Notes under the pieces: generated by a model
Told to the model about the DNA's origin: nothing
What the model saw: the letters and a program-made list of their open reading frames with translations, nothing else
Databases searched by the model: none
Made by a program: the position numbers and the translations under genes
Origin: Vicinamibacterales bacterium
Lineage (GTDB): Bacteria > Acidobacteriota > Vicinamibacteria > Vicinamibacterales > UBA2999
NCBI GenBank assembly: GCA_050748045.1
Contig: JBOGIW010000612.1
Coordinates: 14,573-78,572 of the forward strand
DNA length: 64,000 nt
Direction of reading: 5' to 3'
Shown here: positions 12,018-41,015 of the stretch, piece by piece
Position numbering within the stretch: the first letter of the stretch is position 1
Layout of the letters: the number at the start of each line of letters is the position of its first letter

Positions 12018-12044
12018 CCCCGCGGCCTATGGAACGCCGCGGGG
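12018..12044 (+). promoter_or_regulatory. Perfect 9-bp GC stem-loop 20 nt downstream of the precursor gene (possible attenuator or mRNA-stabilising element; no U-tract)
   Basis: CCCCGCGGC-ctatggaac-GCCGCGGGG read directly from the sequence. It lies in the longest intergenic gap (145 nt) of the left half of the cluster. Confidence 0.45.
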
Positions 12045-12142
12045 CGCGGCGATACAGTAGCGGCCACATCGACCTTCCCTGGACCGCCCCCCACGGTGTC
12101 CATGGCGGAAGCCCGCCCATCGCATCACCCCAGGAGGAGACC

Positions 12143-12382
12143 ATGAGCATCTTCGACAATGAGGAAGACACGACCATCTACAACGTCGTCGTCAACCACG
12201 AGGAGCAGTACTCGATCTGGCCGGCACATCTTCCCGACGTTCTCGGCTGGCGCAAGGTCGGCGTCTCCGGCATCAAGCGCGAGTGCCTCGAGTACATCGA
12301 GCGGGTGTGGACCGACATGCGGCCGCTGAGCCTGCGGCGAAAGATGGAGCAGGACGCGCAGGCCGTGGCGGCGTCACGGTGA
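12143..12382 (+). CDS. MbtH-like protein
   Basis: [45 protein letters not shown], the canonical MbtH signature. GGAGGAG upstream of ATG 12143. Confidence 0.95.
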
Positions 12383-12386
12383 GGCG

Positions 12387-13157: not shown

Positions 13158-13187
13158 CCATCGCCCGAGGCCGTCCGGGAGCGGCAC

Positions 13188-20588: not shown

Positions 20589-23500
20589 ATGGCCACCACC
20601 TCTTCGGCTCGATCGGCGCGATACGAAGCGCAGGTCGCCGAAATCCTGGCTCCGCTCTTTGGGTGTTCGGAGGCAGACGTGGACCGGAGCTCGACGTTCC
20701 TCGAGCTCGGCGCCGATTCCCTGCTCCTCATGCGCGCGAGCCGCGCCATCGAGCAGCGCTTCGGCGTCACGATCCCGTTCCGGACGCTGATGGGGGGCCT
20801 GGGGACGGTGCGCGATCTCGCCGCGCATCTCACGACCAACATCCCTGCCGAGACGCCCGCCGCGGAGCTGGACGTGCCGCTGCCCGAAGCGCCGTCGGTC
20901 TCTCCCGATCCGCCGCGGTCCTCGACCTGGGCGGCCCACGGTGATCGTGGCGGCGCCTCGGATCTCGAACGGATCGTCAGCGATCAGCTCCACCTGATGT
21001 CGCGCCAACTCGAGCTGCTGCGGCGCGCACGAGCAGGGACGCACGACCGGCGGCAGGACCAGCCGAGCGCCGCTCCGACAGTCGAAGCGGCCGCTGCGCC
21101 GGACACCGCGACACCCGAAGCGTTCGGGCCGTTTCGTCCCGCGTCTCGGCAGACGATCTCGGCGATGACCGACCGCCAACAGCGGCACTTGTCCGACCTT
21201 GTCGCGCGCTACACAGCGAGGACGGCGGCGTCGAAGCAATTCGCCGCCGAGCATCGCCGTTGCCTCGCCGATCCGCGGGCGCCAGCCGGCTTCCAGCTCG
21301 CCTGGAAGGAAATGGTGTATCCGCTCGTGGGCAGCCGGTCGAAGGGCTCGCGGCTGTGGGACCTGGACGGCAATCAGTACGTCGATTTCACGATGGGGTT
21401 CGGCGTTCACCTCTTCGGCCATTCGCCGCCCTGCGTGACCAACGCCATCGCCGCGCAGCTCGCCGAGGGCCTGCACCTCGGACCGCAGACGGAACGAGCC
21501 GGCCGCGTCGCCGCCCTCCTGGCCGAGTTGACCGGCATGGAGCGCGTGGCCTTCTGCAACTCCGGCACGGAAGCGGTGATGGGCGCGATCCGGCTCGCGC
21601 GAGCCGCAACCGGACGTGCCCGCATCGCGGTCTTTTCCGGCGCGTATCACGGCACGTTCGACGGCGTACTCGGCCGCGAGCAGACCGTCGGCGGCGTCCG
21701 GCGCACCGCACCCGTCTCCATCGGGACGCCCCTCTCGCTGGTCGCCGACGTGATGGTCCTCGACTACGGCGATCCGGCATCGATCGACGCCGTTCGACAT
21801 GCCGCTGATCTGGCCGCGGTCCTCGTGGAACCCGTCCAGAGCCGCAACCTGTCGCTGCAGCCACGCGCGTTCCTCGAGGAACTGCGAGCGGTGACGGCGC
21901 AGGTCGGTGCGGCGCTCATCTTCGACGAGATCATCTCCGGCTTCCGCGTGCATCCCCGTGGATGCCAGGGCTGGTTCGGCGTGAGCGCCGACCTTGCGAC
22001 CTATGGAAAGGTCGTGGCCGGCGGCCTGCCGATCGGTGTGATCGCGGGGGCGGCGCCCTTCCTCGACCGGATCGACGGCGGCTCCTGGCAGTACGGCGAT
22101 CGGTCGTGCCCGACGGTTCCGCAAGCGATCTTCGCAGGCACCTTCTCGAAGAACCCGCTGACGATGGCCGTGGCCGAAGCGGTCTTGTCGGCGATCCGAG
22201 AGCAGAGTCCCGAGTTGCAGGAGTCGCTGAACCGTCGCACCGGCGCCCTCGCGGAGGCGCTCAACGCCATCTTCACGCGCTGGCGAGCGGCGATGCAGGT
22301 GCACCACTTCGGCTCGATGTTCCGGTTCGCGCGCCGGCCCGACGCTCGCTGGCTCGATCTGCTCTTCTACCACCTCGTCGACCGCGGCGCGTACATCTGG
22401 GAGGGGCGAGGCTGTTTCCTGTCGACCGCGCACGGTGACGCGGATGCGACCTTCCTCGTCGACGCCGTCGACGACAGCCTTCGCGAGCTCGAGCGGGAGG
22501 GCTTTCTCGGCGAGCGCCCGCTCCCGGCCCCGGCTTCCGCGCCGACGCACACGTTCGTTCCGATGGCGGCGTCGGCGAGGCAGATCTGGGTGCACTCGCA
22601 GATCAGCGAGCAGGCTTCCCTGGCGTACAACGAGCTGCTCTGCCTCCGGATGCACGGCGAGATCGATATCGACGCGATGCGGCAATCGGTCCGGCAGCTC
22701 GCCGAACGCCATGACGCGCTTCGAGCTACGGCGGACGAATCGGGTGAACGGTGGTGCGTGGCGGGCGAGGTGGCGGCCGACGTCGCTCGCATCGACCTGT
22801 CGGAACGATACGCCGGCGAAGGCGAGGTCGCCATGGCGGCGGTACTCGACGAGGCGATAGGCGAGCCGTTCGATTTGACCCGCGGGCCGCTCTTCCGCGT
22901 CCGGCTCTATCGTCTCGCCTCCGACCAGCATCTTTTTGCGCTCGTATTTCACCACCTGGCGATGGACGGATTGTCCGCTCAGTTGTTCCTGCAGGAGCTG
23001 CGGACGATGTACGTGGCGGCCATCGAGCGACGCCCGCATGCGCTGCCGCCGGCGAGGCAGTTCAGCGAGCGCGCCGGCGCCGCGCCGGGTCTCCATTCAT
23101 CGGCCGACGCCCTCCACGGAGAGCGCTTCTGGTCAGAGCTGTTGGATGGCGCGGCGCCGCTGCATCTGCCGCTCGACCGGCCGCGCCCGGCGATCGGCGT
23201 CAGCGACGGCCGGCGTGAGCGGATCACGACGCGTGGCGGGCTCGGCGCGGCACTCGCCGACGACGCGGCGCGCGCCAACTGCTCGCTCTTCGTCGTTCTC
23301 CTGTCGGCCTTCGTCGCCACGCTGCACCGCTTGTCGCGACAGAACGACTTCGTCGTGGGTGTGACCTCGATGGGCCGCGCGTTCGACGGCGACCAGCGCA
23401 TGATCGGTCACTGCGTCGATCTGCTGCCGCTGCGCAGCCGTGCGGCCGACGACCCGGAGCTCAGCGGGATCTTCGGGGCGATGAAGTCGCAGCTCCTCGA

Positions 23501-26500
23501 CGCGCAGCAGTACGCGCCCTGGTTGCATCCGAGCAGCGGACCCCGCCGACTCCCCGCCATTCGCGCAACGTTCAACATGGATCCGCCGGCTCGCGACGCC
23601 GGCAGCTCGCTCGACTTCGGGTCGATACACGTCACGAAGCTTCCGGGACGCGTTCGCCACGTCAAATTCGACGTGCAATGGAACGTCGCCGTCGTCCAGG
23701 ACGAGCTCTCGATCGTCTGCGACTACAACGCCCGCTGCTTCGACCCCTCGTCCATTCGATCGATGCTCGACACGTACGTGCAGATCTGCACGCTCGTCGC
23801 CCGGACGGCGCATGTTCGATTGTCCGAGCTGCCCCCCGTGACCGACGTCGGGCGGGAGCGGCTGATGGCCGAACGCGCCGCAACGGCGCGCTCCGTTCCG
23901 CACACGACCATTCCGGCCCTGTTCGAGACGCAGGTCCGGCGAACGCCGCATGCGGTCGCCGTGGCGTGCGGCGAAGAGCGGCTGACCTACGCACAGCTCG
24001 ACGAACGCGCGAATCGGCTCGCGCATCACCTGATCGCCTCGGGCGTCGGCCCAGAGCGGCTCGTCGGCGTGGCGCTGCCTCGCTCGACAAATCTCGTGGT
24101 GGCGATCGTCGCGACGTTGAAGGCTGGTGGAGCCTACGTGCCGATTGAGCCGGACTATCCCGACGCTCGGCTCGCGTTCATGATCGAAGACGCTCGCCCG
24201 AGCCTGGTGCTGACGACCGCGGCGATGCAGCCGCGGCTGCCGCCCGTGGCGCCGACGCTCGATCTCGACGACGAGGCAGTCCAGGACATGCTCGGGCGGC
24301 TGCCGTCGGCGCCGCCCGACCTCACCGTTCTCCCGCAGCATCCCACGTACGTGATCTACACGTCCGGATCCACCGGCGCACCGAAGGGTGCCACGAACAC
24401 ACACGAGGCGCTCGTCAACCGCTTGCTCTGGATGCAGCACGCGTACGGACTGAACGAAGGCGATCGCGTCCTGCAGAAGACGCCATACGGCTTCGACGTT
24501 TCGGTCTGGGAGTTCGTCTGGCCGCTGATCGTAGGGGCGCAGGTCGTGGTGGCCTCGCCGGGCGCGCATCGCGACCCGGTCGCGATTGCCGACGCCATCT
24601 GCGAGCACGGCGTCACGACGGTTCACTTTGTACCGTCGATGCTGCGCGAGTTCCTGCGGTCGCCCGCCGCACCGCGTTGCGTGACGCTGCGCCGCGTCAT
24701 CTGCAGCGGCGAGGCGCTCGCCGGCGATCTGCGGCAGCGGTTCTTCGACGCGCTTCCCGCGGTCGAGCTGCACAACCTCTATGGTCCGACTGAGGCGGCA
24801 ATCGACGTGAGCGCCTGGGCGTGCCGCCCCGACGAGGGCCATGCGGCGCCGCCGATCGGCCACGCGATCTGGAACACCGCACTCTACATCCTCGACGAGC
24901 ACCTCCAGCCGGTGCCGGACGGCGTCATCGGCGATCTCTACATCGTCGGCGCCGGGCTCGCGCGTGGATACCTGCGGCGGCCCGGGCTGACGGCCGACCG
25001 GTTCATCCCTGATCCGTACGCGGATGGAGCGCGGATGTATCGGACCGGCGATCTCGCCCGTCGACGGCAAGGCGGCGCGCTCGAGTTTGCCGGGCGTCGA
25101 GACGATCAGATCAAGCTGCGCGGAGTACGGATCGAGCCTGGCGAGATCGAGGTGGCGCTTCGCCGACATCCGGCGGTCCGTGACGCCGCGGTGGTGCCTG
25201 TCGCGAGCGCCGACGGCGGGAGTCGACTCGCGGCGTACGTCGCGCTCGATACCCGTGTAGCCGGAACGGCGCTGCGCCTGGCGGCGTGCGAACGGGAAGG
25301 CCGACTCTCCGCTGACGCGTGGGTCGAGCTTCCCAACGGCTTGCCGGTCGCGCACCTGACTCGCGGTGAAACGGAGTTCCTCTACGACGAGATCTTCGCG
25401 CGGCAGCGGTATCTGCGACACGGCGTGACGCTCTCGCCTGGCGCATGCGTGCTCGACGTCGGCGCGAACATCGGCATGTTCAGCCTGTTCGTCGGGCACC
25501 ACTACCCGGGCACGCGCATCTACGCATTCGAGCCGATCGCAGCGATCCGCAAGGTGCTGGAGCTCAACGCCGGAATTCACGGACTCGACGTGCGGGTGAT
25601 CGGTGCCGGCCTCGCGGAAGAAGAGGGCGAGCGAACGTTCACCTTCTACCCACGCATGTCGATACTCTCCGGTCAGTTCGCCGATGCGGATCAGGAGCGC
25701 GCCGTCGTCACCGCCTACGCACGGGGGCACGCCACCGGCTCGGCGGACGCGTTCGACGAGCTGCTCGACGACCGGCTGGCGGCGGAAAACGTGCGCTGCC
25801 GGGTGACCACCATCTCCGCGGCCCTCGCGGAGCAGCGAATCGAGCGGGTCGACCTCCTCAAGATCGACGCCGAGAAGAGCGAACTGGCGGTGCTTGACGG
25901 ACTTGCCGCAGACGACTGGCCGAAGATTCGACAGGTGGTCGTGGAGGTGCACGACGAGCGTGCGGCGCTCCCGACCATCCGTGCCCGCCTGCAGCAACAC
26001 GGCTTCCACGTCTCCGAGGAGTGCGACGACAGCCTGGCGGCGACGGGACTGACCACGTTGTACGCGGTACGCGAAGCCGGTCGCGAGAGCGAAGTTCCTC
26101 CGGCCCCCGCGACATGGAGCAGCCCGGCGCGTCTCATCGCGGACATGCGCGCCCGTCTCGGCGAGTCACTGCCGGAGATCATGATTCCCCCGGTCTTCGT
26201 GCTGCTCGATCGACTCCCAGTCAGCGCGAATGGAAAGCTCGATCGGCGGGCGCTGCCGCTGCCCGACCGCGGGTCGCTGCAGGCCGCGTCTCTCGTCCCT
26301 CCCCGCACGCCCACGGAGGAGGTGCTGGCCGCACTCTGGCGCGAGGTGCTCGGCATCGACGGCTTCGGAGTGCACGCCAATTTCTTCGATCTCGGCGGCC
26401 ATTCGCTGCTCGCCACACGTGTGACGGCCGGCATCCGCCGTCACTTCCACGTCCAACTCCGCCTCCACGTCGTGTTCGACCAACCGACGATCGCGCAGCT

Positions 26501-26579
26501 CGCCGAGGTCGTGGAGACGGCGTTGCTCGACGCGCTCGATGCGATCCCGGAGGAAGAGGCCGCACGGCTCGTGGGCTAG
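20589..26579 (+). CDS. Hybrid synthetase: ACP - class III aminotransferase (AMT) - C - A(Ser-like, interrupted by an FkbM-type methyltransferase) - T
   Basis: Carrier LELGADSLLLMRAS. AMT: GSRLWDLDGNQYVDFTMGFG, FCNSGTEAVMGAIRLAR, YGKVVAGGLPIG. C: HHLAMDGLS. A: YTSGSTGAPKG; code approx DVWHISLIDK. MT: VLDVGANIGMFSLF, inserted between the RGVRIEPGEIE core and the A10 core NGKLDRRALP. T: FFDLGGHSL. Confidence 0.9.
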   Translation: MATTSSARSARYEAQVAEILAPLFGCSEADVDRSSTFLELGADSLLLMRASRAIEQRFGVTIPFRTLMGGLGTVRDLAAHLTTNIPAETPAAELDVPLPEAPSVSPDPPRSSTWAAHGDRGGASDLERIVSDQLHLMSRQLELLRRARAGTHDRRQDQPSAAPTVEAAAAPDTATPEAFGPFRPASRQTISAMTDRQQRHLSDLVARYTARTAASKQFAAEHRRCLADPRAPAGFQLAWKEMVYPLVGSRSKGSRLWDLDGNQYVDFTMGFGVHLFGHSPPCVTNAIAAQLAEGLHLGPQTERAGRVAALLAELTGMERVAFCNSGTEAVMGAIRLARAATGRARIAVFSGAYHGTFDGVLGREQTVGGVRRTAPVSIGTPLSLVADVMVLDYGDPASIDAVRHAADLAAVLVEPVQSRNLSLQPRAFLEELRAVTAQVGAALIFDEIISGFRVHPRGCQGWFGVSADLATYGKVVAGGLPIGVIAGAAPFLDRIDGGSWQYGDRSCPTVPQAIFAGTFSKNPLTMAVAEAVLSAIREQSPELQESLNRRTGALAEALNAIFTRWRAAMQVHHFGSMFRFARRPDARWLDLLFYHLVDRGAYIWEGRGCFLSTAHGDADATFLVDAVDDSLRELEREGFLGERPLPAPASAPTHTFVPMAASARQIWVHSQISEQASLAYNELLCLRMHGEIDIDAMRQSVRQLAERHDALRATADESGERWCVAGEVAADVARIDLSERYAGEGEVAMAAVLDEAIGEPFDLTRGPLFRVRLYRLASDQHLFALVFHHLAMDGLSAQLFLQELRTMYVAAIERRPHALPPARQFSERAGAAPGLHSSADALHGERFWSELLDGAAPLHLPLDRPRPAIGVSDGRRERITTRGGLGAALADDAARANCSLFVVLLSAFVATLHRLSRQNDFVVGVTSMGRAFDGDQRMIGHCVDLLPLRSRAADDPELSGIFGAMKSQLLDAQQYAPWLHPSSGPRRLPAIRATFNMDPPARDAGSSLDFGSIHVTKLPGRVRHVKFDVQWNVAVVQDELSIVCDYNARCFDPSSIRSMLDTYVQICTLVARTAHVRLSELPPVTDVGRERLMAERAATARSVPHTTIPALFETQVRRTPHAVAVACGEERLTYAQLDERANRLAHHLIASGVGPERLVGVALPRSTNLVVAIVATLKAGGAYVPIEPDYPDARLAFMIEDARPSLVLTTAAMQPRLPPVAPTLDLDDEAVQDMLGRLPSAPPDLTVLPQHPTYVIYTSGSTGAPKGATNTHEALVNRLLWMQHAYGLNEGDRVLQKTPYGFDVSVWEFVWPLIVGAQVVVASPGAHRDPVAIADAICEHGVTTVHFVPSMLREFLRSPAAPRCVTLRRVICSGEALAGDLRQRFFDALPAVELHNLYGPTEAAIDVSAWACRPDEGHAAPPIGHAIWNTALYILDEHLQPVPDGVIGDLYIVGAGLARGYLRRPGLTADRFIPDPYADGARMYRTGDLARRRQGGALEFAGRRDDQIKLRGVRIEPGEIEVALRRHPAVRDAAVVPVASADGGSRLAAYVALDTRVAGTALRLAACEREGRLSADAWVELPNGLPVAHLTRGETEFLYDEIFARQRYLRHGVTLSPGACVLDVGANIGMFSLFVGHHYPGTRIYAFEPIAAIRKVLELNAGIHGLDVRVIGAGLAEEEGERTFTFYPRMSILSGQFADADQERAVVTAYARGHATGSADAFDELLDDRLAAENVRCRVTTISAALAEQRIERVDLLKIDAEKSELAVLDGLAADDWPKIRQVVVEVHDERAALPTIRARLQQHGFHVSEECDDSLAATGLTTLYAVREAGRESEVPPAPATWSSPARLIADMRARLGESLPEIMIPPVFVLLDRLPVSANGKLDRRALPLPDRGSLQAASLVPPRTPTEEVLAALWREVLGIDGFGVHANFFDLGGHSLLATRVTAGIRRHFHVQLRLHVVFDQPTIAQLAEVVETALLDALDAIPEEEAARLVG
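21290..22510 (+). other. Aminotransferase (GSA-aminomutase-like) domain (approximate)
   Basis: See the motifs above. The arrangement is the same as the AMT of iturin/mycosubtilin-type loading modules. Confidence 0.75.
25260..26100 (+). other. FkbM-family methyltransferase insertion inside the Ser-type A domain (approximate)
   Basis: LTRGETEFLYDEIFARQRYLRHGV..VLDVGANIGMFSLFVGHHYPG..IYAFEP...LLKIDAEKSELAVLDG. Confidence 0.75.
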
Positions 26580-26599: not shown

Positions 26600-28591
26600 A
26601 TGAACACCTTTCGAGTGACGCTGATCAACATGCCTTTCGGCGATCTGCAGATGCCTTCGCTCGGCCTGATGCAGCTCAAGGCGAGGCTCGAGTCGGTCTT
26701 CAAAGACCGTGTCAGCTGCCGGATTCTGTATCTGAGCAACGACTACGCGCGTTACCTCGGCCTGGACGTCTACACGCGGATCGTCGCCTCGACCGAGCTG
26801 CAGGTCACCGGTCTCGGCGACTGGTTCTTCCGCCAGCTCGCCTTCCCCGAGGAACCGGACAACGAGCGCGGGTACTTCCGCAGATACTTCAACGCGAAAG
26901 ACGACGCAACCGTGCGGCTCCGCGAGCGGCTGCGCGATCGGCGGCCCGGCCTCGAAGCGTTCACGGAGCGTCTCATCGACGCCTGTGACCTGCGCTCGGC
27001 CGACCTGGTCGGCCTCACGTCGATGTTCTCGCAGAATGTCGCCTGCTTCGCCATGGCGCGTCTGCTCAAGCGGTCGCAGCCCGCACCGCTCGTCGTGATG
27101 GGCGGCGCGAATTGCGAGGCGCCGATGGGAAAAGTCATCGCCGATCACGTCGAGTGGCTGGACGCCGTCTTCTCGGGACCGGCCTTGCACAGCTTCCCCG
27201 AGTACGTCGAGGCGTGCATGGATGGCCGGCCCGAGCGGATTCAGTCGATCGAAGGCGTCTTCACGCGACAGGGTCGCCAGCTGCTGGCCAGGAATGGCCT
27301 GCTCACAATGGCGCAGCCGGCCGTGCCGCCGTTCGGCAAGGAGCTCGACATCAACACCACCATCGAGCCCGACTACGACGAGTTCCTGGATCAGTTCTCC
27401 ACCCACTTTCGCGGCGAGGCGATGAAGCCGACCCTGACCTTCGAAACGTCGCGCGGGTGCTGGTGGGGCGCGAAGGCGCACTGCACGTTCTGCGGGCTGA
27501 ACGGGTCGAACATGACCTACCGGGCGCTCGACTCGCGCAAGGCGGTGGAGCAGTTCCAGCGTCTCTTCACCTACGCCGATCGCAGCTCGTTCTTCTTCTC
27601 GGTGGACAACATCCTGCCGACGAATTACCCGACCGAGGTGCTGCCGCTCCTCGACGCACCTCCGAACGTCAAGATCTTCTACGAGGTGAAGGCGGACCTC
27701 AGCGACAAGACGCTCGCCTCGCTGGCGCGCGCCGGCGTCCGGATCGTGCAGCCGGGAATCGAAGCGCTTTCGACCTCCACGCTGAAGCTGATGAGAAAGG
27801 GCACGAGCGCCTTCAGCAACATCGCGTTCCTGAAGGGGTGTCTGCAACACGACATCAAGCCGCTCTGGAACCTGCTCATCGGCTTTCCAGGCGAGCAGGC
27901 CGCCGTCTACGAGAAGTACCAGCGCGACATCCCGCTGCTTGCGCACCTGCCGCCGCCGAGCGGCGTGTTCCCGATTCGCTTCGATCGATACAGCCCGTAC
28001 TTCACCAAGGCCGCCGAGTACGAGCTGTCGCTCGAGCCAATGGAGTTCTACCGGCTCGTGTACCCCTTCCCGCAGGCCGCGATCGCCGATCTCGCCTACT
28101 ACTTCGTCGACGTGAACCCGAACGCGTCGTACATGCTCAACATGGCTGAATGGCACGGACCGCTGAACCATGCCGTCGACCGCTGGAAGCGTCGATGGCT
28201 CGACGGCGACTGCGGAGCCGTCCGCCCCGTCCTGCACGTCACGAACGGCTCCGAGGGGGTCGTGGTCCACGATTCACGCTTCGACCGCGAAGCGGCCTAC
28301 CGGCTGACGACGGAACAGGCGAGGTGCCTGCATCGGCTGGCGCTGCCGGCGCGCAGCGCCGACCTCGCCCAGCTCTCGAGAGAAATCCCAACCATCGTCG
28401 TCGAGCGCGAGCTCGCGTTTCTGCGCGACAGACGCCTCGTATTCGAGGAGGGCGACCGCCTGGTCGGCCTCGTCAGCAACGCCGAGCTGGCAGCGCCAGC
28501 CCTTCAGGATCTCGTTTCGCGCGCTCCCGAGCCTCTGGAGGTAGCGGCCGCGGAAGCAGACGTTCACATAGCCTCGTTCGCCTGCTCGTAA
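26600..28591 (+). CDS. B12-binding radical SAM enzyme of the 'RiPP maturation radical SAM protein 1 / C-methyltransferase' type (TIGR03975-like; PoyB/PoyC family)
   Basis: N-terminus MNTFRVTLINMPFGDLQMPSLGLMQLKARL. Extended cluster motif FETSRGCWWGAKAHCTFCGLNG (Cx8CxxC, characteristic of this family). VQPGIEALS, LWNLLIGFPGE. Confidence 0.8.
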   Translation: MNTFRVTLINMPFGDLQMPSLGLMQLKARLESVFKDRVSCRILYLSNDYARYLGLDVYTRIVASTELQVTGLGDWFFRQLAFPEEPDNERGYFRRYFNAKDDATVRLRERLRDRRPGLEAFTERLIDACDLRSADLVGLTSMFSQNVACFAMARLLKRSQPAPLVVMGGANCEAPMGKVIADHVEWLDAVFSGPALHSFPEYVEACMDGRPERIQSIEGVFTRQGRQLLARNGLLTMAQPAVPPFGKELDINTTIEPDYDEFLDQFSTHFRGEAMKPTLTFETSRGCWWGAKAHCTFCGLNGSNMTYRALDSRKAVEQFQRLFTYADRSSFFFSVDNILPTNYPTEVLPLLDAPPNVKIFYEVKADLSDKTLASLARAGVRIVQPGIEALSTSTLKLMRKGTSAFSNIAFLKGCLQHDIKPLWNLLIGFPGEQAAVYEKYQRDIPLLAHLPPPSGVFPIRFDRYSPYFTKAAEYELSLEPMEFYRLVYPFPQAAIADLAYYFVDVNPNASYMLNMAEWHGPLNHAVDRWKRRWLDGDCGAVRPVLHVTNGSEGVVVHDSRFDREAAYRLTTEQARCLHRLALPARSADLAQLSREIPTIVVERELAFLRDRRLVFEEGDRLVGLVSNAELAAPALQDLVSRAPEPLEVAAAEADVHIASFACS

Positions 28592-28618: not shown

Positions 28619-29770
28619 ATGCACCAAGGCAGCGCACCGGCAAACCGACTGGGAATCACGGGCGTCGATCACATGTTGCTGTACGCGGGCAATGCGCATC
28701 AGACCGCCCATTTCTACAGTGCGGCGTTCGGCTTCCGAATCCTCGGATATTCCGGTCTCGAAACGGGACACCGCAACCAGGCGTCCTGGGTTCTCGGGCA
28801 CGGTGACGCAACCCTCGTGGTCACCAGCGGCCTCGACGCCGACGGACCCGCGGCACGACACGTCAATAGACACGGCGACAGCGTCAAAGATGTCGCGTTC
28901 CGTGTAGAGAGCGTCGAACGGGCGTTCGCGGAGGCGGTTCGCGGCGGCGCTCGACCGGTGCTGGAGCCGGCAACCATCGAGGATCAGTACGGTCGTTTCG
29001 TCGTGGCGACCGTGGGAACGGTCGGCGACCTGGTGCATTCGTTCGTCGATCGGCGCGCCTATCACGGGCCGTTCGTGCCGGGGTACGTCCCGAAGGTATC
29101 GCGGGCCCGCACGCGCCGACTCGCGATCACCGCCTTCGACCATTTTGCGGTCGCCCTCACGGCCGGAACGCTCGACGCGTGGGTAGACTTCTACCGTTGT
29201 GCGCTCGGCTTTCATGAGTGCCACGAGCAGAGGATCGACACGGGAAAGACCGGCATGCGATCGCGCGTGATGGCCGGCGGGCCCGCCGGCGTGGTCTTTC
29301 CGCTGCTCGAGCCGGTCGACGGCGCCAGCCGCTCCCAGGTGCAGGAGTTTCTCGACTTCAACTGCGGCCCCGGGGTGCAGCATGCCGCCATCCACACCAC
29401 CGACATCATCGCGGCGGTTCGCTCGCTGATTCACATGGGCATGGAGTTCGTCCACACGCCGGACGCGTATTACGAAGCGGTGCCGTCGCGCATGGGTCGG
29501 CTCGACGAGGATCTCGCCGCACTCCAAGAGCTGCGCATCATGGTCGACAAGGACGATTCCGGCTATCTGTTCCAGATCTTCACGAAGTCCGTCACCGGAC
29601 GGCCCACGTTCTTCATCGAGCTGATCCAGCGGAAGGGATCGCGCGGGTTCGGCGCCGGCAACGTTCGCGCCTTGTTCGAAGCGATCGAACGAGAGCAGGC
29701 GGTGCGCGAGCGCGCAGCCGAGTACGGGGACGCGCCGCTCGCGCAAGCCTCCGCGGGAGGCGGCGCGTGA
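28619..29770 (+). CDS. 4-hydroxyphenylpyruvate dioxygenase family enzyme (HPPD or 4-hydroxymandelate synthase; not distinguishable by eye)
   Basis: Two VOC-fold halves. VDHMLLYAGNAHQTAHFY.., FDHFAV, GPGVQHAAIHTTDI, YLFQIFTKSVTGRPTFFIELIQRKGSRGFGAGNVRALFEAIE. GGAGG RBS. Confidence 0.85.
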   Translation: MHQGSAPANRLGITGVDHMLLYAGNAHQTAHFYSAAFGFRILGYSGLETGHRNQASWVLGHGDATLVVTSGLDADGPAARHVNRHGDSVKDVAFRVESVERAFAEAVRGGARPVLEPATIEDQYGRFVVATVGTVGDLVHSFVDRRAYHGPFVPGYVPKVSRARTRRLAITAFDHFAVALTAGTLDAWVDFYRCALGFHECHEQRIDTGKTGMRSRVMAGGPAGVVFPLLEPVDGASRSQVQEFLDFNCGPGVQHAAIHTTDIIAAVRSLIHMGMEFVHTPDAYYEAVPSRMGRLDEDLAALQELRIMVDKDDSGYLFQIFTKSVTGRPTFFIELIQRKGSRGFGAGNVRALFEAIEREQAVRERAAEYGDAPLAQASAGGGA

Positions 29771-32634
29771 CACCGGCGGCACGCTGCAGTTGCGGCGGCC
29801 ACGATTGGCCGCGCGCGATCGGCGACCACGCACGGCGGCAGCCGCAGCGGACGGCGGTCGTCTGGACGGGCGGGCGCCTCACCTACGGCCAGCTCGTCAC
29901 GTTGAGCGGCGCGCTCGCCCATCACCTGCGCGACGTGACGCCGTCGCGGCCGGCGCGCATCGGCGTCTGCCTCGATCGTTCGTGGCGAGCCGTCGTGGCG
30001 GTGCTCGGCATCCTCGAAGCGGAATGCATTTACGTGCCGCTCGACGCGAGTCACCCCCTCGAACGCCTCCAGGCCGTCATCGAGGACGCACAGCTCGACG
30101 CGCTCCTCGTCGAGCGGCCGACCGCCAGCCTCATCCCCGATTCTGCGCGCCCGATTGCGTGCGTGATCGACGATCTCCTCGCGCCTGCGCCCGCCGCCGG
30201 GTCAGGCACGGAACCGGCGGTCTGCCGCTGCCGCGAGCTGGCGTACATCATGTACACCTCGGGAACGACCGGCACGCCGAAGGGCGTGATGATCGAGCGC
30301 CGCAATCTCGCCGCGTGCTTGGCCGCGAGCCAGGAGCGATTCGAGTGGCGGCGGTCCGACAAGCTGGCAGCGGTGGCGCCGTGGGCCTTCGATATCTCCC
30401 TCTTCGAGATCCTCAACCCGCTCGTCGCTGGCGGATCCGTCTGGATCGTCGGCAAGGTGGAAATACTGAATGCACGGGCGCTGACCGACGTGCTCGCCCG
30501 CTGCACGATGTTCCATGCCGTGCCGGCGCTCATGCAGGGCCTGGTCGGACACCTGAGGAACACCACCACGTCCCTGCCGTCGCTCGCAACCGTCTTCGTG
30601 GGCGGCGACCGCGTGCCGCCGGATCTGCTGGCGTCGCTGCGCGACGTGTTTCCGCACGCGCAGGTCCACGTCCTCTACGGGCCGACCGAAGCGACGATCA
30701 TCAGCACCTCCCATCGCGTGTCCGCAGACCTGCGTGCCGACGCGATCATCGGCTCCGCTCTCCCCGGCTCGATCGTCAAGGTCGTCCCGCTGGAACCGTC
30801 GGGCACGAGCGGAGAGATCTGGATTGGCGGCGAGGGCGTAGGCCGCGGCTATTGGCGGCGCGACGATCTCACGCAGGCGCAATTCGTCAAGCGCGACGGC
30901 GATCGCTACTATCGCACCGGCGACCTCGCGCGCGTGCAGCCGGACGGGAACCTGGTCTTCCTCGGGCGCCTCGACCGGCAGGTCAAGATTCGCGGACAGC
31001 GCATCGAGCCCGCCGAGATCGAGATTGCGCTTCGTCGCCATCCCGGCGTGCTCGACGCCGCGGTGGCACCGCGCGTGAACAGCAACGGCGACACCACGCT
31101 GGCCGCCTGGGTGGTGCCGGTCGCAGGCGACAGTCGCACGCACATGTGGCCGTCCGTGGGCGAATACCCCCTTTACGACGAGCTCATCTATCGCGGCCTG
31201 ACGAGCGATGAGGAACGAAATCGCGCCTACCTCCACGCGCTGACGTGCACAGCGCCCGGTCGAGTCGTCGTAGACGTCGGCACCGGCGCCGACGCGATTC
31301 TGGCGCGAATGGCGGCGCAAGCGGGCGCCCGCCGTGTCTACGCGATCGAAGCCCGTGAAGACGCCTTTCGAGCCGCTGTCGCGTGCGTCGCCAACGCTGG
31401 CATGTCCGATCGAATCCAGGTGATCAAGGGCGACGCCCGCCAGGTCGCGTTGCCCGAACAACCCGAGGTATGTGTCTCCGAAATATTCGAGTCGATCGGG
31501 GGCGCGGAAGGTGCCGGGATGATTCTCTCCGCCGTCCGCCGACAGCTCTGCGGTGCGCGCGTCATGGTGCCGTGGCAGGTGACGACGATGGTCGCCGCGG
31601 TGTCGATCCCGGACTCGTCGAGGAAGGCGCCGCGCTTCGATCCCGTCGCCGCGTACTACGTCGAGAAGGCGTTCGCCGCATTCGGCCGCCCGTTCGACAT
31701 TCGTCTCTGTGTGCGCGGGGCGTCGCGCGAGTGGCTGCTCTCGGGCGAAGACGTCTTCGAGCGCCTCGATCTCGACGATCCCGGGACGACGCGGTCGGAC
31801 CGGCGGGCACATCTCCGCATCCAGCGCAAGGGAACGGTGGACGGATTTCTGCTCTGGCTCCGGCTCACGATGCCGGACGGTCGTGTCCTCGATACGCTCG
31901 ACACGGCGACCTCGTGGTTTCCGGCGTTCGTACCGGCATTCGACGGAGCCGCGGTTGAACCAGGCGACGAGTTGATCGCCGATTGCGTGTCGCGCCTCTC
32001 GGCGGACGGCGTGCATCCGGACTATGCTCTGCGCGGAACGCTCACGCGCCCCGGCCGCCGCCACCTTGGTTTCGACTGCGACCTGGCGTACCGGCCGCAA
32101 CACTTCCGCCGCGACCTGTTCTACCAGCAGCTGTTCCACGACTCGGGCGTGCCGGCGCGAGGACTGACGATCGACGCGAGCGAGATCAGGCGGCACGCCG
32201 CCAGCCTGCTGCCGGCCCACATGATTCCCTCCACGGTCACCCTCGTCGAACGCCTTCCGCTGACGCCGAACGGGAAGCTCGATTACGCGGCGTTGCCCGA
32301 GCCGACGGTCGCGCGATCGCCGGCGCTCAGCGGCTACGCGCCTCCCACCGACGAACGTGAGCGACGCATGGTCGGCATCTGGGAACAGGTTCTCGACGCA
32401 TCCCCCATCGGCGTGCGCGACAGCTTCTTCGATCTCGGCGGCGACTCACTCACGGCGTTGCGGCTGATCGAGCGTGTCCGGCACGAACTCGATGTCGACA
32501 TTCCGCTCGCCAGTCTGTACCGCGATCAGACCGTCGAGCGCCTGGTGCAATCGCTCGCCGGCCGCCCGCCGGACAGGGCGGATCGCGCGCGCGCACGGCT
32601 CGCGCGGCTCACGCCGTGCGACGTACACCTGTGA
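29767..32634 (+). CDS. Stand-alone NRPS A-T didomain whose A domain is interrupted by a PRMT-like class I methyltransferase (A-MT-T, no C domain)
   Basis: A: YTSGTTGTPKG, LYGPTE, YRTGDL, KIRGQRIEPAEIE. Insertion: PSVGEYPLYDELIYRGLTSDEERNRAY..VVDVGTGADAILARMAAQAGARRVYAIEAREDAF (arginine-methyltransferase-like motifs I/post-I). A10: PNGKLDYAALP. T: FFDLGGDSL. Code approx DIFHFGLIIK (unassigned). GTG 29767 overlaps the previous stop (GTGA). Confidence 0.85.
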   Translation: MTPAARCSCGGHDWPRAIGDHARRQPQRTAVVWTGGRLTYGQLVTLSGALAHHLRDVTPSRPARIGVCLDRSWRAVVAVLGILEAECIYVPLDASHPLERLQAVIEDAQLDALLVERPTASLIPDSARPIACVIDDLLAPAPAAGSGTEPAVCRCRELAYIMYTSGTTGTPKGVMIERRNLAACLAASQERFEWRRSDKLAAVAPWAFDISLFEILNPLVAGGSVWIVGKVEILNARALTDVLARCTMFHAVPALMQGLVGHLRNTTTSLPSLATVFVGGDRVPPDLLASLRDVFPHAQVHVLYGPTEATIISTSHRVSADLRADAIIGSALPGSIVKVVPLEPSGTSGEIWIGGEGVGRGYWRRDDLTQAQFVKRDGDRYYRTGDLARVQPDGNLVFLGRLDRQVKIRGQRIEPAEIEIALRRHPGVLDAAVAPRVNSNGDTTLAAWVVPVAGDSRTHMWPSVGEYPLYDELIYRGLTSDEERNRAYLHALTCTAPGRVVVDVGTGADAILARMAAQAGARRVYAIEAREDAFRAAVACVANAGMSDRIQVIKGDARQVALPEQPEVCVSEIFESIGGAEGAGMILSAVRRQLCGARVMVPWQVTTMVAAVSIPDSSRKAPRFDPVAAYYVEKAFAAFGRPFDIRLCVRGASREWLLSGEDVFERLDLDDPGTTRSDRRAHLRIQRKGTVDGFLLWLRLTMPDGRVLDTLDTATSWFPAFVPAFDGAAVEPGDELIADCVSRLSADGVHPDYALRGTLTRPGRRHLGFDCDLAYRPQHFRRDLFYQQLFHDSGVPARGLTIDASEIRRHAASLLPAHMIPSTVTLVERLPLTPNGKLDYAALPEPTVARSPALSGYAPPTDERERRMVGIWEQVLDASPIGVRDSFFDLGGDSLTALRLIERVRHELDVDIPLASLYRDQTVERLVQSLAGRPPDRADRARARLARLTPCDVHL
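31140..32180 (+). other. PRMT-like methyltransferase insertion (approximate borders)
   Basis: The motifs listed above lie between the A8/A9 region and the A10 core. Confidence 0.65.
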
Positions 32635-32647
32635 GCCGGAGACTGTC

Positions 32648-33970
32648 ATGAGCCGCTCCCGACACGTCGAGCTCAAGGCGTGTTTCTCCGATCCGTTGCT
32701 CGACGTGATGACCTTCCTGAACGAAGTCGTGTCCGAATATCCATCGGCCATTTCGTTCGCCCCCGGCCGTCCGCTCGACTCGTCGTTCCAGATCGAGGAA
32801 TCGCTTCCGGCAATCGCCGCGTTCGTGACCGCATCCGCCGCGCGTCGCGGCGTCGCGGCCGGCACCGTCTGGCAGGAGCTCGCGCAATACGGCCGCACCA
32901 ATGGGATCATCCACGAGCTCATCGCCACGCATCTGGCAACGGACGAGGGGATCGTCGCGGATCCAGCGTCGATCGTGGTCACGGTCGGCGCGCAGGAAGC
33001 GATGGCCATCGCCCTCGCCGGTCTGTTCGAGCCGCGTGAGGACGTGCTGCTCGTCAGCGATCCGACGTATATCGGGATCACCGGCCTCGCACGCATTCTC
33101 GGGATACGCGTCGCGCCGGTGCCATCCGGCGATCGCGGTCTGGACGCCGGCGTCGTAGAGCAGGCGATCGCGCGGGCGTCGCGCGAAGGGCGCGTTCGTG
33201 CCCTGTACGACATCCCCGATTTCAACAACCCGCTCGGAACCAGTCTGCCCTTCGAAGATCGATTGCGGCTGCTGGACGTGTGCACCCGTCACGGCGTGCT
33301 CGTGATCGAGGACAATCCCTACGGGATGTTCGCCTACGACAACCAGCGCCTGCCCACTCTCAAGGCGCTCGATCGGGATGGCGTCGTCTTGTACATCGGC
33401 AGTTTCGCCAAAACGCTGTTTCCGGGTCTCCGCCTCGGGTATCTCGTGACGGACCAGCGCACCGCGTGCGGCGAGCCGCTGGCCGCCGCGCTCTCGCGCG
33501 TGAAGAGCCTCATCAGCGTGAACACCTCGCCGATCGTGCAGGCAATCGCCGGTGGGATGCTCCTGAGAAGCGGCGGGTCCCTCGAACCGATCGTGGCGCC
33601 GAAGCGGAACGCGTACCGTGCCCGTCGAGACGCGATGCTCGCGGCGCTGGACCGGCACTTCGGCGGCGGTCCGGTCTCGTGGAGCTCGCCGCAGGGAGGG
33701 TTCTTCCTCACGATGACGCTGCCGTTCGAGTTCGGGCCCGTCGAGCTCCGGCAATGCGCCGCCGACTACGGCGTCATCGTGGCGCCGATGCGCTTCTTCG
33801 GCCTGACCGCGACACGGACCACGCAGATCCGCCTGTCGTTCAGCTACGTCGATCCTGAACGGATCGCCGTAGGTGTCCAGCGTCTGGCTCGTTTCGTTCA
33901 CGATCGTCTGGGAGCAGCCCCGGATGCGTCGTTGTGCGCATGGTCCAACGCATGTAAACTCGCCCGTTGA
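32648..33970 (+). CDS. PLP-dependent aminotransferase, class I/II fold
   Basis: ISFAPGRP.., VTVGAQEAMAIALAGL, EDNPYGMF, SFAKTLFPGLRLGYL (PLP-Lys region), RLSFS. Confidence 0.8.
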   Translation: MSRSRHVELKACFSDPLLDVMTFLNEVVSEYPSAISFAPGRPLDSSFQIEESLPAIAAFVTASAARRGVAAGTVWQELAQYGRTNGIIHELIATHLATDEGIVADPASIVVTVGAQEAMAIALAGLFEPREDVLLVSDPTYIGITGLARILGIRVAPVPSGDRGLDAGVVEQAIARASREGRVRALYDIPDFNNPLGTSLPFEDRLRLLDVCTRHGVLVIEDNPYGMFAYDNQRLPTLKALDRDGVVLYIGSFAKTLFPGLRLGYLVTDQRTACGEPLAAALSRVKSLISVNTSPIVQAIAGGMLLRSGGSLEPIVAPKRNAYRARRDAMLAALDRHFGGGPVSWSSPQGGFFLTMTLPFEFGPVELRQCAADYGVIVAPMRFFGLTATRTTQIRLSFSYVDPERIAVGVQRLARFVHDRLGAAPDASLCAWSNACKLAR

Positions 33971-33975
33971 TCCCG

Positions 33976-35322
33976 ATGCCCCGACGCATGCCCGGCCGAT
34001 GGCTGCTCGGTCCCGTCCTGATCGCGCTGCTCGTGGTCGGGCCTGCCGCCCGGCGTGGGCGCCCGCTGACGATTACCCACGCCACGGTCGTCGACATGGT
34101 GACCGGACGCACGACCCCCGACAGCACAGTGGTGGTACGAGACGGGGTCATCGTGTCGGTGGGGACGCGCACGGCGCCGCCGGCGGGCGCGCACGTCGTC
34201 GACGCCGCGGGCGGCTTTCTGATTCCAGGCCTCTGGGACATGCACGCGCATCACGAGGCCACTGGTGAGACCTCCCTCGGCCTGTACGTCGCCAACGGCG
34301 TCACCGGTACGCGCGACATGGGATCGGATCTCGATGCGGTGCTTCGGCTGCGGGCGATGACCGCGGCCGGTACCCTCCTTGGTCCGCGCATCGTCGCCGC
34401 CGGGCCGATTCTCGACGATGCGCCGGACGACTGGCCGTATCGGCTGCGGGTGCGCACGGCCGACGAAGCGCGGCGCGCCGTTCGCATGCTGAAGACGCGA
34501 GGCGTCGATTTCGTCAAAGTGCACGACCGTACGCCGCGCGAGGCATATCTCGCAATCGTCGAGGAGGCCAGCCAGCACAGCCTGCCCGTGGTCGGGCACG
34601 TGCCGCGCGGGATTACGCTCGAGGACGCCGTGCAGGCAGGGCAACGCAGCATCGAGCACCTCGCGGGGTTCCGCGTCGTGCGCCAATGTTCGGGCGGCGA
34701 GACGTATCGTCGAGAGGCGTGCGCGCCGTTCTTCGCGTGGCTCGCCACACGCGCGGTCTGGCAGACGCCGACGTTGGCATCGTGGCGCAGCCTGATGACC
34801 ATCGGCACCGCACAATCGGATGCGGAGAAAGACCACGTCGAGTACGCCAGCCCTTCACTGCGGGAAGGATGGGCGCTGAATCAGCGCGTGTCCAACTCCA
34901 GCGCCGAACAAGCGCGCCAGCTCGTGGCATCCTCCGACAATGCCGCGATTGCAGTGAGCGATATGCAGAGGGCGGGTGTCGGCATTCTTGCCGGCTGCGA
35001 CGGGCTCGTTCCGGGCTTCTGCGTTCACGACGAGCTCGAGGTGATGGTTCGGGGCGGCATGTCACCGCTCGCGGCGCTGCAGACCGCGACGATCAACCCG
35101 GCGCGGTTTCTCGCTCTCGAGCGGACGCTGGGCGCGGTAGCGGAGGGCAAGGCCGCCGACCTCCTCTTGCTGCAGGCGAACCCGCTCGAGGACATCGCCA
35201 ACGTCAGGAAGATCGAGGGCGTTGTCGTGGCTGGGCGCTGGCTCGATCGGCAGCAACTCGACGCCCTGCTCGCCGACATCAAGCGCCGGTTCAACCCGGC
35301 ATCGCTCGCGCCCGCGAACTAG
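33976..35322 (+). CDS. Metal-dependent amidohydrolase-family protein with an N-terminal signal/anchor
   Basis: MPRRMPGRWLLGPVLIALLVVGPAA, then ITHATVVDM.., FLIPGLWDMHAHH (HxH metal site), DFVKVHD, GILAGCDG, HDELE. TTG 33967 (TTGA overlap with the previous stop) is an alternative start. Confidence 0.8.
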   Translation: MPRRMPGRWLLGPVLIALLVVGPAARRGRPLTITHATVVDMVTGRTTPDSTVVVRDGVIVSVGTRTAPPAGAHVVDAAGGFLIPGLWDMHAHHEATGETSLGLYVANGVTGTRDMGSDLDAVLRLRAMTAAGTLLGPRIVAAGPILDDAPDDWPYRLRVRTADEARRAVRMLKTRGVDFVKVHDRTPREAYLAIVEEASQHSLPVVGHVPRGITLEDAVQAGQRSIEHLAGFRVVRQCSGGETYRREACAPFFAWLATRAVWQTPTLASWRSLMTIGTAQSDAEKDHVEYASPSLREGWALNQRVSNSSAEQARQLVASSDNAAIAVSDMQRAGVGILAGCDGLVPGFCVHDELEVMVRGGMSPLAALQTATINPARFLALERTLGAVAEGKAADLLLLQANPLEDIANVRKIEGVVVAGRWLDRQQLDALLADIKRRFNPASLAPAN

Positions 35323-35459: not shown

Positions 35460-35765
35460 ATGCTTGATTGGGAAATGCTGATGCTGCTCGATGAGCGGGA
35501 GGACGAAGACGAGGCGACGCGATACGAACGCCGCGCGTTCCGGCAGGAGCTGCAGTGGAGCGTGTCGCCGCTCGTTTTCGCGGCCATCCTTCTCGCCCAC
35601 GGCGGCGCCGCGCTTGCCCGCCTGCTCTCGTCGCGAGCGCGGCGCGTGTGGACGGCCGTCCGAGGATCCGCGCGTCGGCGCTCCTTCGCCGCCGACACGA
35701 GCCCGTCACGAGAGCCGCTCGCACACGTCCACGCCGATGTGAGCTCCCCGATCGGCCGGCTCTGA
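35460..35765 (+). CDS. Small hypothetical protein (101 aa): acidic N-terminus, central hydrophobic segment, Arg-rich C-terminus; candidate scaffold or accessory peptide of the LanB-like enzyme
   Basis: MLDWEMLMLLDEREDEDEATRYERRAFRQELQWSVSPLVFAAILLAHGGAALARLL SSRARRVW... Third-codon positions are strongly G/C, as in real genes here. AAGGTGAG lies 5 nt upstream. The ORF ends 30 nt before the LanB-like gene. In-frame ATG 35424 is an alternative start. Confidence 0.45.
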   Translation: MLDWEMLMLLDEREDEDEATRYERRAFRQELQWSVSPLVFAAILLAHGGAALARLLSSRARRVWTAVRGSARRRSFAADTSPSREPLAHVHADVSSPIGRL

Positions 35766-40137: not shown

Positions 40138-41015
40138 TCGCGAATCCCTCTGCTGAACATCAGGAGGCCGCGTGCGCGCCGGCTGTTCTTTCCGGCGCCG
40201 GCGAGCTGACCTGTCGCGATCTCAGGAGCCACCAGGACCTGGAGAGCGCGGCCGCGCTGGAAACCGAGATCTGGGGGTACACGGATCGTCTCGACGCGCT
40301 GCCACCCTCGCTTCTCTCGGCCTCGATCCGCGTCGGGGGCCTCCTGCTGGGCGCGTTCGACGCGGATCGCCTCGTGGGATTCGTCTACTCGTTTCCCGCG
40401 ATTCGGAACGGCGAGACGATCCACTGGTCGCATCGGCTTGGCGTCGCAGAAGCATACAGGAGCACGGGCGTCGGGCACTGGTTGAAGCTGGAGCAGCGGA
40501 GGCGTGTGGCCGCGCTCGGTCTCAACCTCGTTGCCTGGACCTACGACCCTATGCTGGCGGCGAACGCGCACCTGAACCTGACGAAATTGCGCGCCACGGC
40601 GGCGCGATACGAAACTGACGTGTACGGCACCTCGAGCAGCCCGCTGCATGCCGGAATCCCGACGGATCGGCTCGTCGTGGACTGGCGGATCGGCGGCGCG
40701 ACCGGCGAACCCGACGCGGATCGAAGTCGTCGGCGCCACACCGCCATCTGCGACGCCCCGGTCGTGAACAGGACGCGACGCGGTCGCGTCTGGCCTGCAT
40801 GCGCCGCCCTCGAGCTCTCGTGTCCGTCAGATACCGTGCGCGTCGAGATTCCACTCGGGTTCACCCAGATGCTGCGCCGCGATCGCGGGCTGGCGCTGCA
40901 GTGGCGACTGGCGACGCGCGCGGTCTTCACGACGTATTTCGGTGCCGGATTCACTGCGGTCGACTTCGCCGTCTGTCGCGACCGCGGGCTCGGATGGTAC
41001 CTGTTGACGCGCTGA
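40134..41015 (+). CDS. GNAT-fold acyltransferase-like protein (COG3375-like), function unknown
   Basis: LETEIWGY...PSLLSASIRVGGLLLGAFD..LVGFVYSFPA...SHRLGVAEAYRSTGVGHWLKLEQRR.ALGLNLVAWTYDPMLAANAHLNLTKL resembles the 'predicted GNAT superfamily acetyltransferase' family. ATGA overlap with the previous gene. Confidence 0.45.
   Translation: MIANPSAEHQEAACAPAVLSGAGELTCRDLRSHQDLESAAALETEIWGYTDRLDALPPSLLSASIRVGGLLLGAFDADRLVGFVYSFPAIRNGETIHWSHRLGVAEAYRSTGVGHWLKLEQRRRVAALGLNLVAWTYDPMLAANAHLNLTKLRATAARYETDVYGTSSSPLHAGIPTDRLVVDWRIGGATGEPDADRSRRRHTAICDAPVVNRTRRGRVWPACAALELSCPSDTVRVEIPLGFTQMLRRDRGLALQWRLATRAVFTTYFGAGFTAVDFAVCRDRGLGWYLLTR

Follow-up and report, generated by a model that had tools for sequence, protein, structure and literature searches.

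The 64,000-nt stretch of contig JBOGIW010000612.1 of a Vicinamibacterales bacterium that was analysed here (the window) carries an array of co-directional genes (278 to 57605, + strand, intergenic gaps of at most about 145 nt), and among its nonribosomal peptide synthetase (NRPS) genes lies a gene of a radical S-adenosylmethionine (SAM) enzyme (26600-28591, + strand, 663 aa). Judging from its sequence and modelled fold, the product is a genuine cobalamin-type radical SAM enzyme of the "RiPP maturation" methyltransferase family TIGR03975 (RiPP, a peptide made on ribosomes and then modified post-translationally). The best account of its role, which has about an even chance of being correct, is that it acts in the NRPS pathway, most likely in late-stage C-methylation of the peptide product. 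A substrate from the NRPS pathway is best supported because of the genomic context of the enzyme's clade, the shared synteny and the precedent of DscE from the discodermin cluster.

The radical SAM enzyme

The gene starts with an ATG at 26600, 20 nt after the stop codon of an NRPS gene (26579), and stops at 28591, 27 nt before the ATG (28619) of a gene similar to 4-hydroxyphenylpyruvate dioxygenase (HPPD). This reading frame and both gaps had been given by the initial annotation of the DNA, together with an N-terminal string (LINMPFGDLQMPSLGLMQLKA, residues 8-28) and an iron-sulfur cluster motif (SRGCWWGAKAHCTFCGL, residues 284-300), and all of them agree with the translation. The description of the gene as lying between two NRPS genes holds on the upstream side, where an NRPS gene adjoins, but not downstream, where the neighbour is the HPPD-like gene and the next NRPS gene, encoding an adenylation (A) domain with a methyltransferase (MT) and a thiolation (T) domain, starts at 29767.

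A hidden Markov model search confirmed the proposed family: TIGR03975 matched with 504.2 bits, far over its cutoff of 281.85, covering residues 6-624 of 663 and profile positions 1-604 of 606 (NCBIfam). The second-best NCBIfam family reached only 39.7 bits, and no assignment to a BchE- or HpnR-like subfamily was obtained. Pfam gave 44 bits for Radical_SAM and a weak match for B12-binding (E=0.0058). The cysteines of the [4Fe-4S] motif CX7CX2C (C287, C295 and C298; CWWGAKAHCTFC, codons at 27458-27493, + strand) are invariant in 60 homologues. A search of the PDB with the full-length sequence gave no matches. The AlphaFold2 (AF2) model built with 60 homologues (pLDDT 86.9, pTM 0.88) had its best Foldseek matches in OxsB, TsrM, CysS and MgmA (E 1e-12 to 1e-10), in agreement with the layout of class B methylases, a Rossmann-type cobalamin domain at the N-terminus followed by the radical SAM barrel.

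The C-terminus carries a predicted winged-helix domain resembling the RiPP recognition element (RRE), with three strands, three helices and a wing (residues 543-625; 28226-28474, + strand). The PqqD-like topology of three strands and three helices appears in two AF2 models, and the top PDB match of a profile of these residues was TfuB1, a lasso-peptide RRE (E=0.005); Foldseek found the same TfuB1 chain (6jx3_B) over 90 columns with template modelling (TM) scores of 0.53/0.60 and a non-significant E of 0.31. The search for such a domain, suggested in the initial annotation, can thus be considered positive with moderate strength, and for this reason there is still room for a peptide substrate. 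The domain and a D(S/T)R motif are conserved both in the clade of NRPS-embedded enzymes described below and in the other clade; which ligand a leader-binding module has where no leader is present is a question that follows from its retention.

Genomic context of related enzymes

Besides a near-identical copy, the relatives of the enzyme include two proteins of 67% identity (P0002 and P0003) and one of 58% (P0004), followed by hundreds of homologues at 46-51%. In the locus of P0002 (L001), read from its C-A-T-C-A-T-TE gene (C, condensation; TE, thioesterase) to its ketosynthase-acyltransferase (KS-AT) gene, the radical SAM gene is preceded by the C-A-T-C-A-T-TE gene and by a gene encoding an acyl carrier protein (ACP), an aminotransferase and C-A(MT)-T, and is followed by a 94-aa open reading frame (ORF), a LanB-N gene, an A-T gene, a 300-aa ORF and the KS-AT gene. 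The ACP-aminotransferase-C-A(MT)-T gene is also the one that lies directly 5' of the radical SAM gene in the window (20589-26579, + strand, 1996 aa, code DVWHISLIDK for Ser).

NRPS genes are likewise found near the gene of P0004, and all six sampled homologues of about 50% identity on long contigs belong to clusters of NRPS and/or polyketide synthase (PKS) genes. Among the relatives of at least about 40% identity with usable flanks, 10 of 11 are flanked by NRPS/PKS genes; these counts come from 27 loci of species-representative genomes, which include several metagenome-assembled genomes (MAGs). The homologue of Chitinophaga rupis is located between two NRPS genes with gaps of 4 nt. In a neighbour-joining tree the window's enzyme falls into an NRPS-embedded clade, apart from the members encoded beside Nif11 precursors or peptidase-containing ABC transporter (PCAT) exporters. 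Within this clade 18 of the 19 members with readable flanks are in NRPS/PKS operons, and none of the 19 has NHLP/Nif11 precursors or NHLM exporters beside it. NHLM-type exporters and Nif11 precursors adjoin only relatives of 30-33% identity. A crude regular-expression scan of the relatives' loci for peptides with a double-glycine (GG) motif matched Nif11 precursors in L013 only; it missed the window's own peptide and so does not count as evidence that such peptides are absent. In the samples read, the NRPS-embedded branch is large and phylogenetically broad, with members in Bacteroidota, Acidobacteriota, Proteobacteria and MAGs of deltaproteobacteria.

The scores with TIGR03975 are 480-540 bits for the NRPS-embedded enzymes, 504 for the enzyme of the window and 673-699 for those adjoining precursors or exporters. 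All these bands exceed the cutoff, so the family model, although passed, cannot decide between a ribosomal peptide and an NRPS substrate; what does inform is the band of the score, which for the window's enzyme is that of the NRPS-embedded ones. The databases label NRPS-embedded homologues as "RiPP maturation" enzymes (P0041 and P0043 at NCBI, many others at JGI). Owing to this label, genome mining would put such clusters into the wrong class or, in structure prediction, overlook C-methylated residues, tert-leucine for example.

PoyB and PoyC, the proteusin C-methyltransferases of the polytheonamide pathway, presumably are members of TIGR03975 as well. The enzyme shares with them the CX7CX2C motif and the cobalamin-radical SAM fold, and radical C-methylation of unactivated side-chain carbons would be expected. 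It differs from the Poy enzymes, beside which NHLP-leader precursors are encoded, in having no such precursor beside it, in its location in an NRPS operon and in its lower TIGR03975 score band.

Several observations concern individual relatives. A second, different B12-binding radical SAM gene adjoins the TIGR03975 homologue in two NRPS/PKS clusters (L031 12031-13998; L039 8277-9947). A 98-aa ORF near the homologue of L039 was considered as a possible precursor and rejected, having no leader-like features. In two MAG loci (L028 10001-11881; L029 10001-11514) the homologue was matched piecewise in different frames and may be either a pseudogene or the result of an assembly frameshift.

Proposed role in the nonribosomal pathway

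The enzyme may be a class B radical SAM methyltransferase, using cobalamin and a [4Fe-4S] cluster, that tailors the nonribosomal peptide/polyketide made by the assembly line around it. A 5'-deoxyadenosyl radical, formed when SAM is cleaved reductively, would take a hydrogen from an unactivated side-chain carbon, and methylcobalamin would then supply the methyl group. By analogy with DscE, which converts Val to tert-Leu, the substrate would be the released or late-stage peptide, held by the RRE-like C-terminal domain; the gene two places upstream includes a Val/Ile-like module. We infer the methylation chemistry, the NRPS product as the substrate and the site of modification.

DscE, from the NRPS cluster of discodermin, was shown in vitro to methylate Val5 of free discodermin D, and the 2025 study of 'Entotheonella' that described it called the co-occurrence of an NRPS and a radical SAM C-methyltransferase "an unusual enzyme combination" (PMC12858407). 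It is the only assayed enzyme of the NRPS-embedded kind. As in the window, a RiPP-like radical SAM C-methyltransferase is encoded in an NRPS cluster, and DscE acts on the released peptide; the dsc cluster differs in that no leader peptide, NHLM exporter or PEARL-like gene has been reported for it. The initial annotation had left two options, methylation of a ribosomal peptide or recruitment to a carrier-protein-bound substrate, and considered the second unusual. The 18 of 19 clade members embedded in NRPS/PKS operons and the DscE precedent speak against this judgement, and recruitment to the NRPS pathway is now the better supported option; the first is weaker, although the RRE-like domain speaks in its favour. 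MacB genes lie next to many clade members, and a MacB-type exporter gene is found at the end of the cluster in the window, so the NRPS product would have no need of the NHLM exporter. Among the best fold matches to the enzyme is a CysS structure with a pantetheinylated substrate.

Several points weigh against this interpretation. The RRE-like domain that the enzyme retains is a hallmark of leader-peptide-guided enzymes, and the same co-directional array includes a conserved GG-leader peptide with its cognate NHLM exporter. Immediately beside the radical SAM gene of the 67% relative are a conserved small ORF and the PEARL-like gene, recalling TmoA, TmoB and TmoD. The tree is a neighbour-joining tree without bootstrap, the gene contexts are a sample and not an exhaustive survey, and the likeness to DscE is drawn from the published description of that enzyme.

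The PEARL-like gene and its small ORF

A gene resembling those of peptide aminoacyl-tRNA ligases (PEARLs) and a small ORF upstream of it had been overlooked in the initial annotation. The product of this gene (35795-38359, + strand, 854 aa) comprises LanB-N only, of the glutamylation/PEARL type: it matches PF04738 with 79 bits, while the elimination domain PF14028 is not matched in it even at E<=10 and is found nowhere in the window. Its phmmer search against the PDB gave no matches. The small ORF (35460-35765, + strand, 101 aa) lies 29 nt upstream and has a G+C content at third codon positions (GC3) of 0.82; because it precedes the LanB-N gene, the start of the latter is placed at the ATG at 35795 and not at 35555. 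The N-terminal part of the small ORF (about 65 aa) is 59% identical to the 94-aa ORF located between the radical SAM and LanB-N genes of the 67% relative (L001 12141-12425), and the C-terminal tails of the two are unrelated. Beyond this relative, homologues were absent from the other relatives' loci examined, and Pfam gave no match. The product has a hydrophobic helix and, after it, an Arg-rich stretch; it might serve as the carrier peptide of the PEARL-like enzyme or else be a small membrane protein.

These genes allow another role for the enzyme, similar to that of TmoD, a radical SAM enzyme that depends on B12, working on a PEARL carrier peptide in the 3-thiahomoleucine pathway of Tistrella mobilis (PMC9303977). 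In a pathway of this pearlin type, LanB-N would add an aminoacyl-tRNA residue to the C-terminus of a ribosomal carrier, either the 101-aa ORF product or the 61-aa GG peptide described below, and the radical SAM enzyme, docking through its RRE-like domain, would C-methylate this residue. An amidohydrolase (33967-35322, + strand), which resembles Xaa-Pro dipeptidases with 112 bits, under the NCBIfam cutoff, or an FmdA-like protein would free the amino acid for an A domain of the NRPS, and one A domain of the cluster has an unassigned code (DGFVMALIWK). We regard this as unlikely. It agrees with the absence of an elimination domain for LanB-N anywhere in the window, with the RRE-like domain, and with the conserved small ORF, which is directly 5' of LanB-N in both clusters and lies between the radical SAM and LanB-N genes in the relative; the combination of carrier peptide, PEARL and B12-radical SAM enzyme also has a precedent in TmoA, TmoB and TmoD (PMC9303977). 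On the other side, no other NRPS-embedded clade member examined has a LanB-like gene or small ORF nearby, the hydrophobic helix and Arg-rich stretch may mean that the ORF encodes a small membrane protein, and PEARL-like enzymes of NRPS clusters can act directly on the nonribosomal peptide. The tmo cluster shares with the window a B12-radical SAM gene, a LanB-N/PEARL-type ligase gene and a gene for a small ribosomal peptide, and TmoD binds the carrier peptide; however, TmoD is a singleton in the similarity network of cobalamin-radical SAM enzymes, and the tmo cluster has no NRPS and includes DUF692/RRE partner proteins, which are absent here.

Direct action on a nonribosomal product is known for SnaE, a PEARL-like amide ligase of the threopeptin NRPS-PKS cluster, which needs no carrier peptide (PMC11212132). 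Like the gene of the window, the gene of SnaE encodes a LanB-N-type enzyme misannotated as a lantibiotic dehydratase inside an NRPS/PKS cluster. SnaE comes after a ureido-forming C domain that bears the motif EHHxxHDG, whereas this motif occurs in no C domain of the cluster studied here, and a chain reversal of the SnaE type was rejected on this ground. The sna cluster also lacks a candidate carrier peptide, while two small peptide genes are present here. A ribosomal peptide that supplies an NRPS with a building block is known from rufomycin biosynthesis, where BytA, RufO and RufB feed a modified amino acid to the NRPS (bioRxiv 10.1101/2024.07.12.603347). There, too, the ribosomal peptide gene is hidden in an NRPS cluster; the differences are nitration by a cytochrome P450, a leaderless 5-mer and the lack of an exporter or a radical SAM enzyme.

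A wider scheme, in which ribosomal peptides serve as intermediates of the nonribosomal pathway, is rather unlikely. In such an obligate three-way hybrid the RRE-bearing radical SAM enzyme and the PEARL-like ligase would work on a ribosomal carrier and form on it a non-proteinogenic, C-methylated residue, and either this residue would be freed for the NRPS or the modified peptide would be cleaved at the GG motif and secreted by the NHLM exporter. The carrier might be the product of the 101-aa ORF or the peptide with the core LDWSQ(M/I)(L/V)LP, and the PEARL-like or a GNAT-like enzyme might join the peptide to the NRPS/PKS product. If true, this would be the first pearlin/RiPP-NRPS pathway using a TIGR03975 enzyme. 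The mere co-occurrence of an NRPS and a radical SAM enzyme has one assayed precedent; what is new is that it comes together with a PEARL-like ligase, an NHLM exporter and a GG peptide that is conserved, which makes the cluster a compact system for studying how ribosomal and nonribosomal pathways interact.

The double-glycine peptide and its exporter

The peptide gene (11813-11998, + strand, 61 aa) encodes a leader ending in ELTEADLARVVGG, followed by the 9-aa core LDWSQMLLP. The leader fits the double-glycine pattern (L-12, L-7 and V-4, then GG). As the initial annotation had it, this is the only visible precursor: no other GG-leader ORF occurs in the window, and its end at 11998 is 14,602 nt (14.6 kb) upstream of the radical SAM gene. 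An AGGAG sequence is located 9 nt 5' of the ATG, GC3 is 0.89, and both substitutions relative to a 99% identical twin fall at third codon positions. A search against NCBIfam found no family at E<=0.01, and an exhaustive HMMER search found two homologues of 59 aa (P0125 and P0126), which retain ELTDEDLARVVGG and the core LDWSQIVLP, with 7 of 9 core residues conserved. On these grounds the ORF of the 61-aa peptide is a genuine gene.

The 14 leader residues before GG are conserved between the lineages, and the first approximately 36 residues are nearly unrelated (window; L037 3121-3300; L038 941-1120). A core that stays conserved while the leader drifts is the opposite of what is usual in RiPPs and would better fit a role that constrains the sequence, such as a signal or a recognition handle. 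The proteins encoded around the peptide homologues are 73-90% identical to those of the window, and the gene order PCAT, ABC2, binding protein, TauD, peptide, MbtH and thioesterase is the same on three contigs, within each contig's reach. The peptide with its exporter module is a conserved part of this cluster type in at least two lineages.

The NHLM export set is complete, all three components being over their curated cutoffs: HlyD (3131-4393; TIGR03794, 355 bits, cutoff 156), the C39 peptidase/ABC transporter (4418-6634; TIGR03796, 1020 bits, cutoff 853) and the second ABC subunit, ABC2 (6631-9546; TIGR03797, 890 bits, cutoff 709). A Pfam-predicted outer-membrane efflux protein is encoded in front of them (1557-3134). 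Between ABC2 and the TauD gene, in every peptide-bearing contig that reaches there (L037 and the contig of P0126), a periplasmic binding protein is encoded, which in the window matches Peripla_BP_6 of the Leu/Ile/Val type (9559-10722) and could be the receptor for the secreted 9-mer. A TauD-family Fe/2-oxoglutarate dioxygenase gene (10782-11792) precedes the peptide gene by 20 nt, an adjacency that is also conserved; the peptide gene is followed by genes for an MbtH-like protein (12143-12382) and a type II thioesterase (12387-13157). All these genes are on the + strand.

A GC-rich hairpin of 9 bp (12018-12049; CCCCGCGGC...GCCGCGGGG) about 20 nt past the peptide stop has a folding energy of -29.7 kcal/mol, which does not stand out from shuffled sequences (z = -0.55), and no terminator was called after the peptide gene. 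A similar sequence is present at the same place in L037.

In the primary proposal of the initial annotation the radical SAM enzyme C-methylates the 9-aa core; the C39 peptidase/ABC exporter would then cleave past GG and secrete the product. The annotation invoked the co-occurrence of this enzyme family with NHLP/Nif11 precursors and NHLM exporters; the exporter part of this context was confirmed by the scores given above, while the precursor matches no NCBIfam family and is neither NHLP nor Nif11. The proposal is consistent with the reality of the peptide gene and the conservation of its core in a second lineage, with the RRE-like domain, and with the co-directional, closely spaced array that joins the peptide and radical SAM genes. 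We nevertheless consider core methylation distinctly unlikely: the two genes are far apart, the enzyme belongs to the NRPS-embedded clade and not to the one adjoining precursors and exporters, and the pattern of conserved core and diverged leader N-terminus is not that of usual RiPPs. The three contigs with peptide homologues are at most 8.7 kb long, too short to show an accompanying radical SAM gene.

The upstream serine module

The enzyme might also act on a carrier-bound or free building block, or perform radical chemistry other than methylation; for instance, it might extend, in the manner of CysS, an O-methyl group set on Ser by the FkbM-type MT encoded just upstream. Upstream of the radical SAM gene, both the window and the 67% relative indeed encode an A domain with a Ser code that an FkbM-type MT interrupts, and one of the top fold matches is CysS with its pantetheinylated methoxy substrate. 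CysS (cystobactamid; PDB 9n1b-d), a class B methylase acting on a pantetheine-linked NRPS substrate, matches the model with a TM score of about 0.45-0.5, but it is only about 13-14% identical, belongs to another family and has no matched RRE-like C-terminal domain. In one further cluster (L032) the homologue is flanked by a free-standing ACP-like protein of 75 aa (9736-9963) and an FkbH-like protein (11912-13615), which hints at a carrier-bound glyceryl-type substrate there. The FkbM link is not general, however: the corresponding domain of L031 has an Asp code and other loci have no such domain, and the FkbM-interrupted Ser module was therefore rejected as a universal partner of the enzyme. 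The RRE-like domain argues for a ligand of peptide size, and DscE works on a free peptide. A role of this kind is improbable, more so than methylation of the core peptide, and substrates or roles outside all those named here are very improbable.

Other genes of the cluster

The assembly line comprises NRPS and PKS genes on the + strand, whose A-domain specificity (Stachelhaus) codes were read with GrsA as a control, which came out correct. They correspond to Val/Ile-like, Asn, Ser, 4-hydroxyphenylglycine (Hpg)-like, Gln and Asp specificities, one code is unassigned and one has no Asp235. The first gene (C-A-T-C-A-T-TE, 13188-20564) has the codes DAFTLGVTFK (Val/Ile-like) and DLTKVGEVGK (Asn) and is followed by the ACP-aminotransferase-C-A(MT)-T gene. 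Downstream of the radical SAM gene, an HPPD/HmaS-like gene (28619-29770), an A(MT)-T gene with the Hpg-like code DIFHFGLIIK (29767-32634), a class I/II aminotransferase gene (32648-33970) and the amidohydrolase gene form a block (28619-35322) that is absent between the radical SAM and LanB-N genes of the 67% relative and looks like an inserted cassette for a building block. No hydroxymandelate oxidase gene was seen in the window.

Immediately downstream of LanB-N is an A-T gene (38356-40137) with the code AGWAIGIYPK; since Asp235 is absent, its A domain is not specific for an alpha-amino acid. Together with the stand-alone KS-AT (41054-43867) and the ACP-aminotransferase, it suggests a beta-amino acyl unit made in trans. 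Between the A-T and KS-AT genes lies a 293-aa ORF (40134-41015), which is conserved as the 300-aa ORF at the same position in the 67% relative and has sub-threshold matches to three GNAT families of Pfam (E 0.001-0.07, residues 68-120). It was also considered as a split LanB elimination domain, which was rejected as it has no PF14028 match, a weak GNAT similarity and only chance-level PDB matches. The region 43932-46600 encodes an unknown 345-aa protein and an FmdA/AmdA-like protein, both poorly assigned. Three NRPS genes complete the array (46597-57605), with the organisation C-A-T (Gln code), C-A-T-C (Asp code) and C-A-T (DGFVMALIWK).

The first gene of the array encodes a sigma-54 activator nearly without an N-terminal sensor domain (278-1531, + strand). 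A scan for the sigma-54 promoter consensus yielded a single site, with one mismatch, where 3.7 would be expected by chance. At the other end, a MacB/FtsX-type permease is encoded on the - strand (57930-60374). In the last part of the window (58001-64000) the GC content declines from about 0.68 to 0.62, and the MacB permease and ABC ATPase genes run in the opposite direction, which probably marks the end of the cluster.

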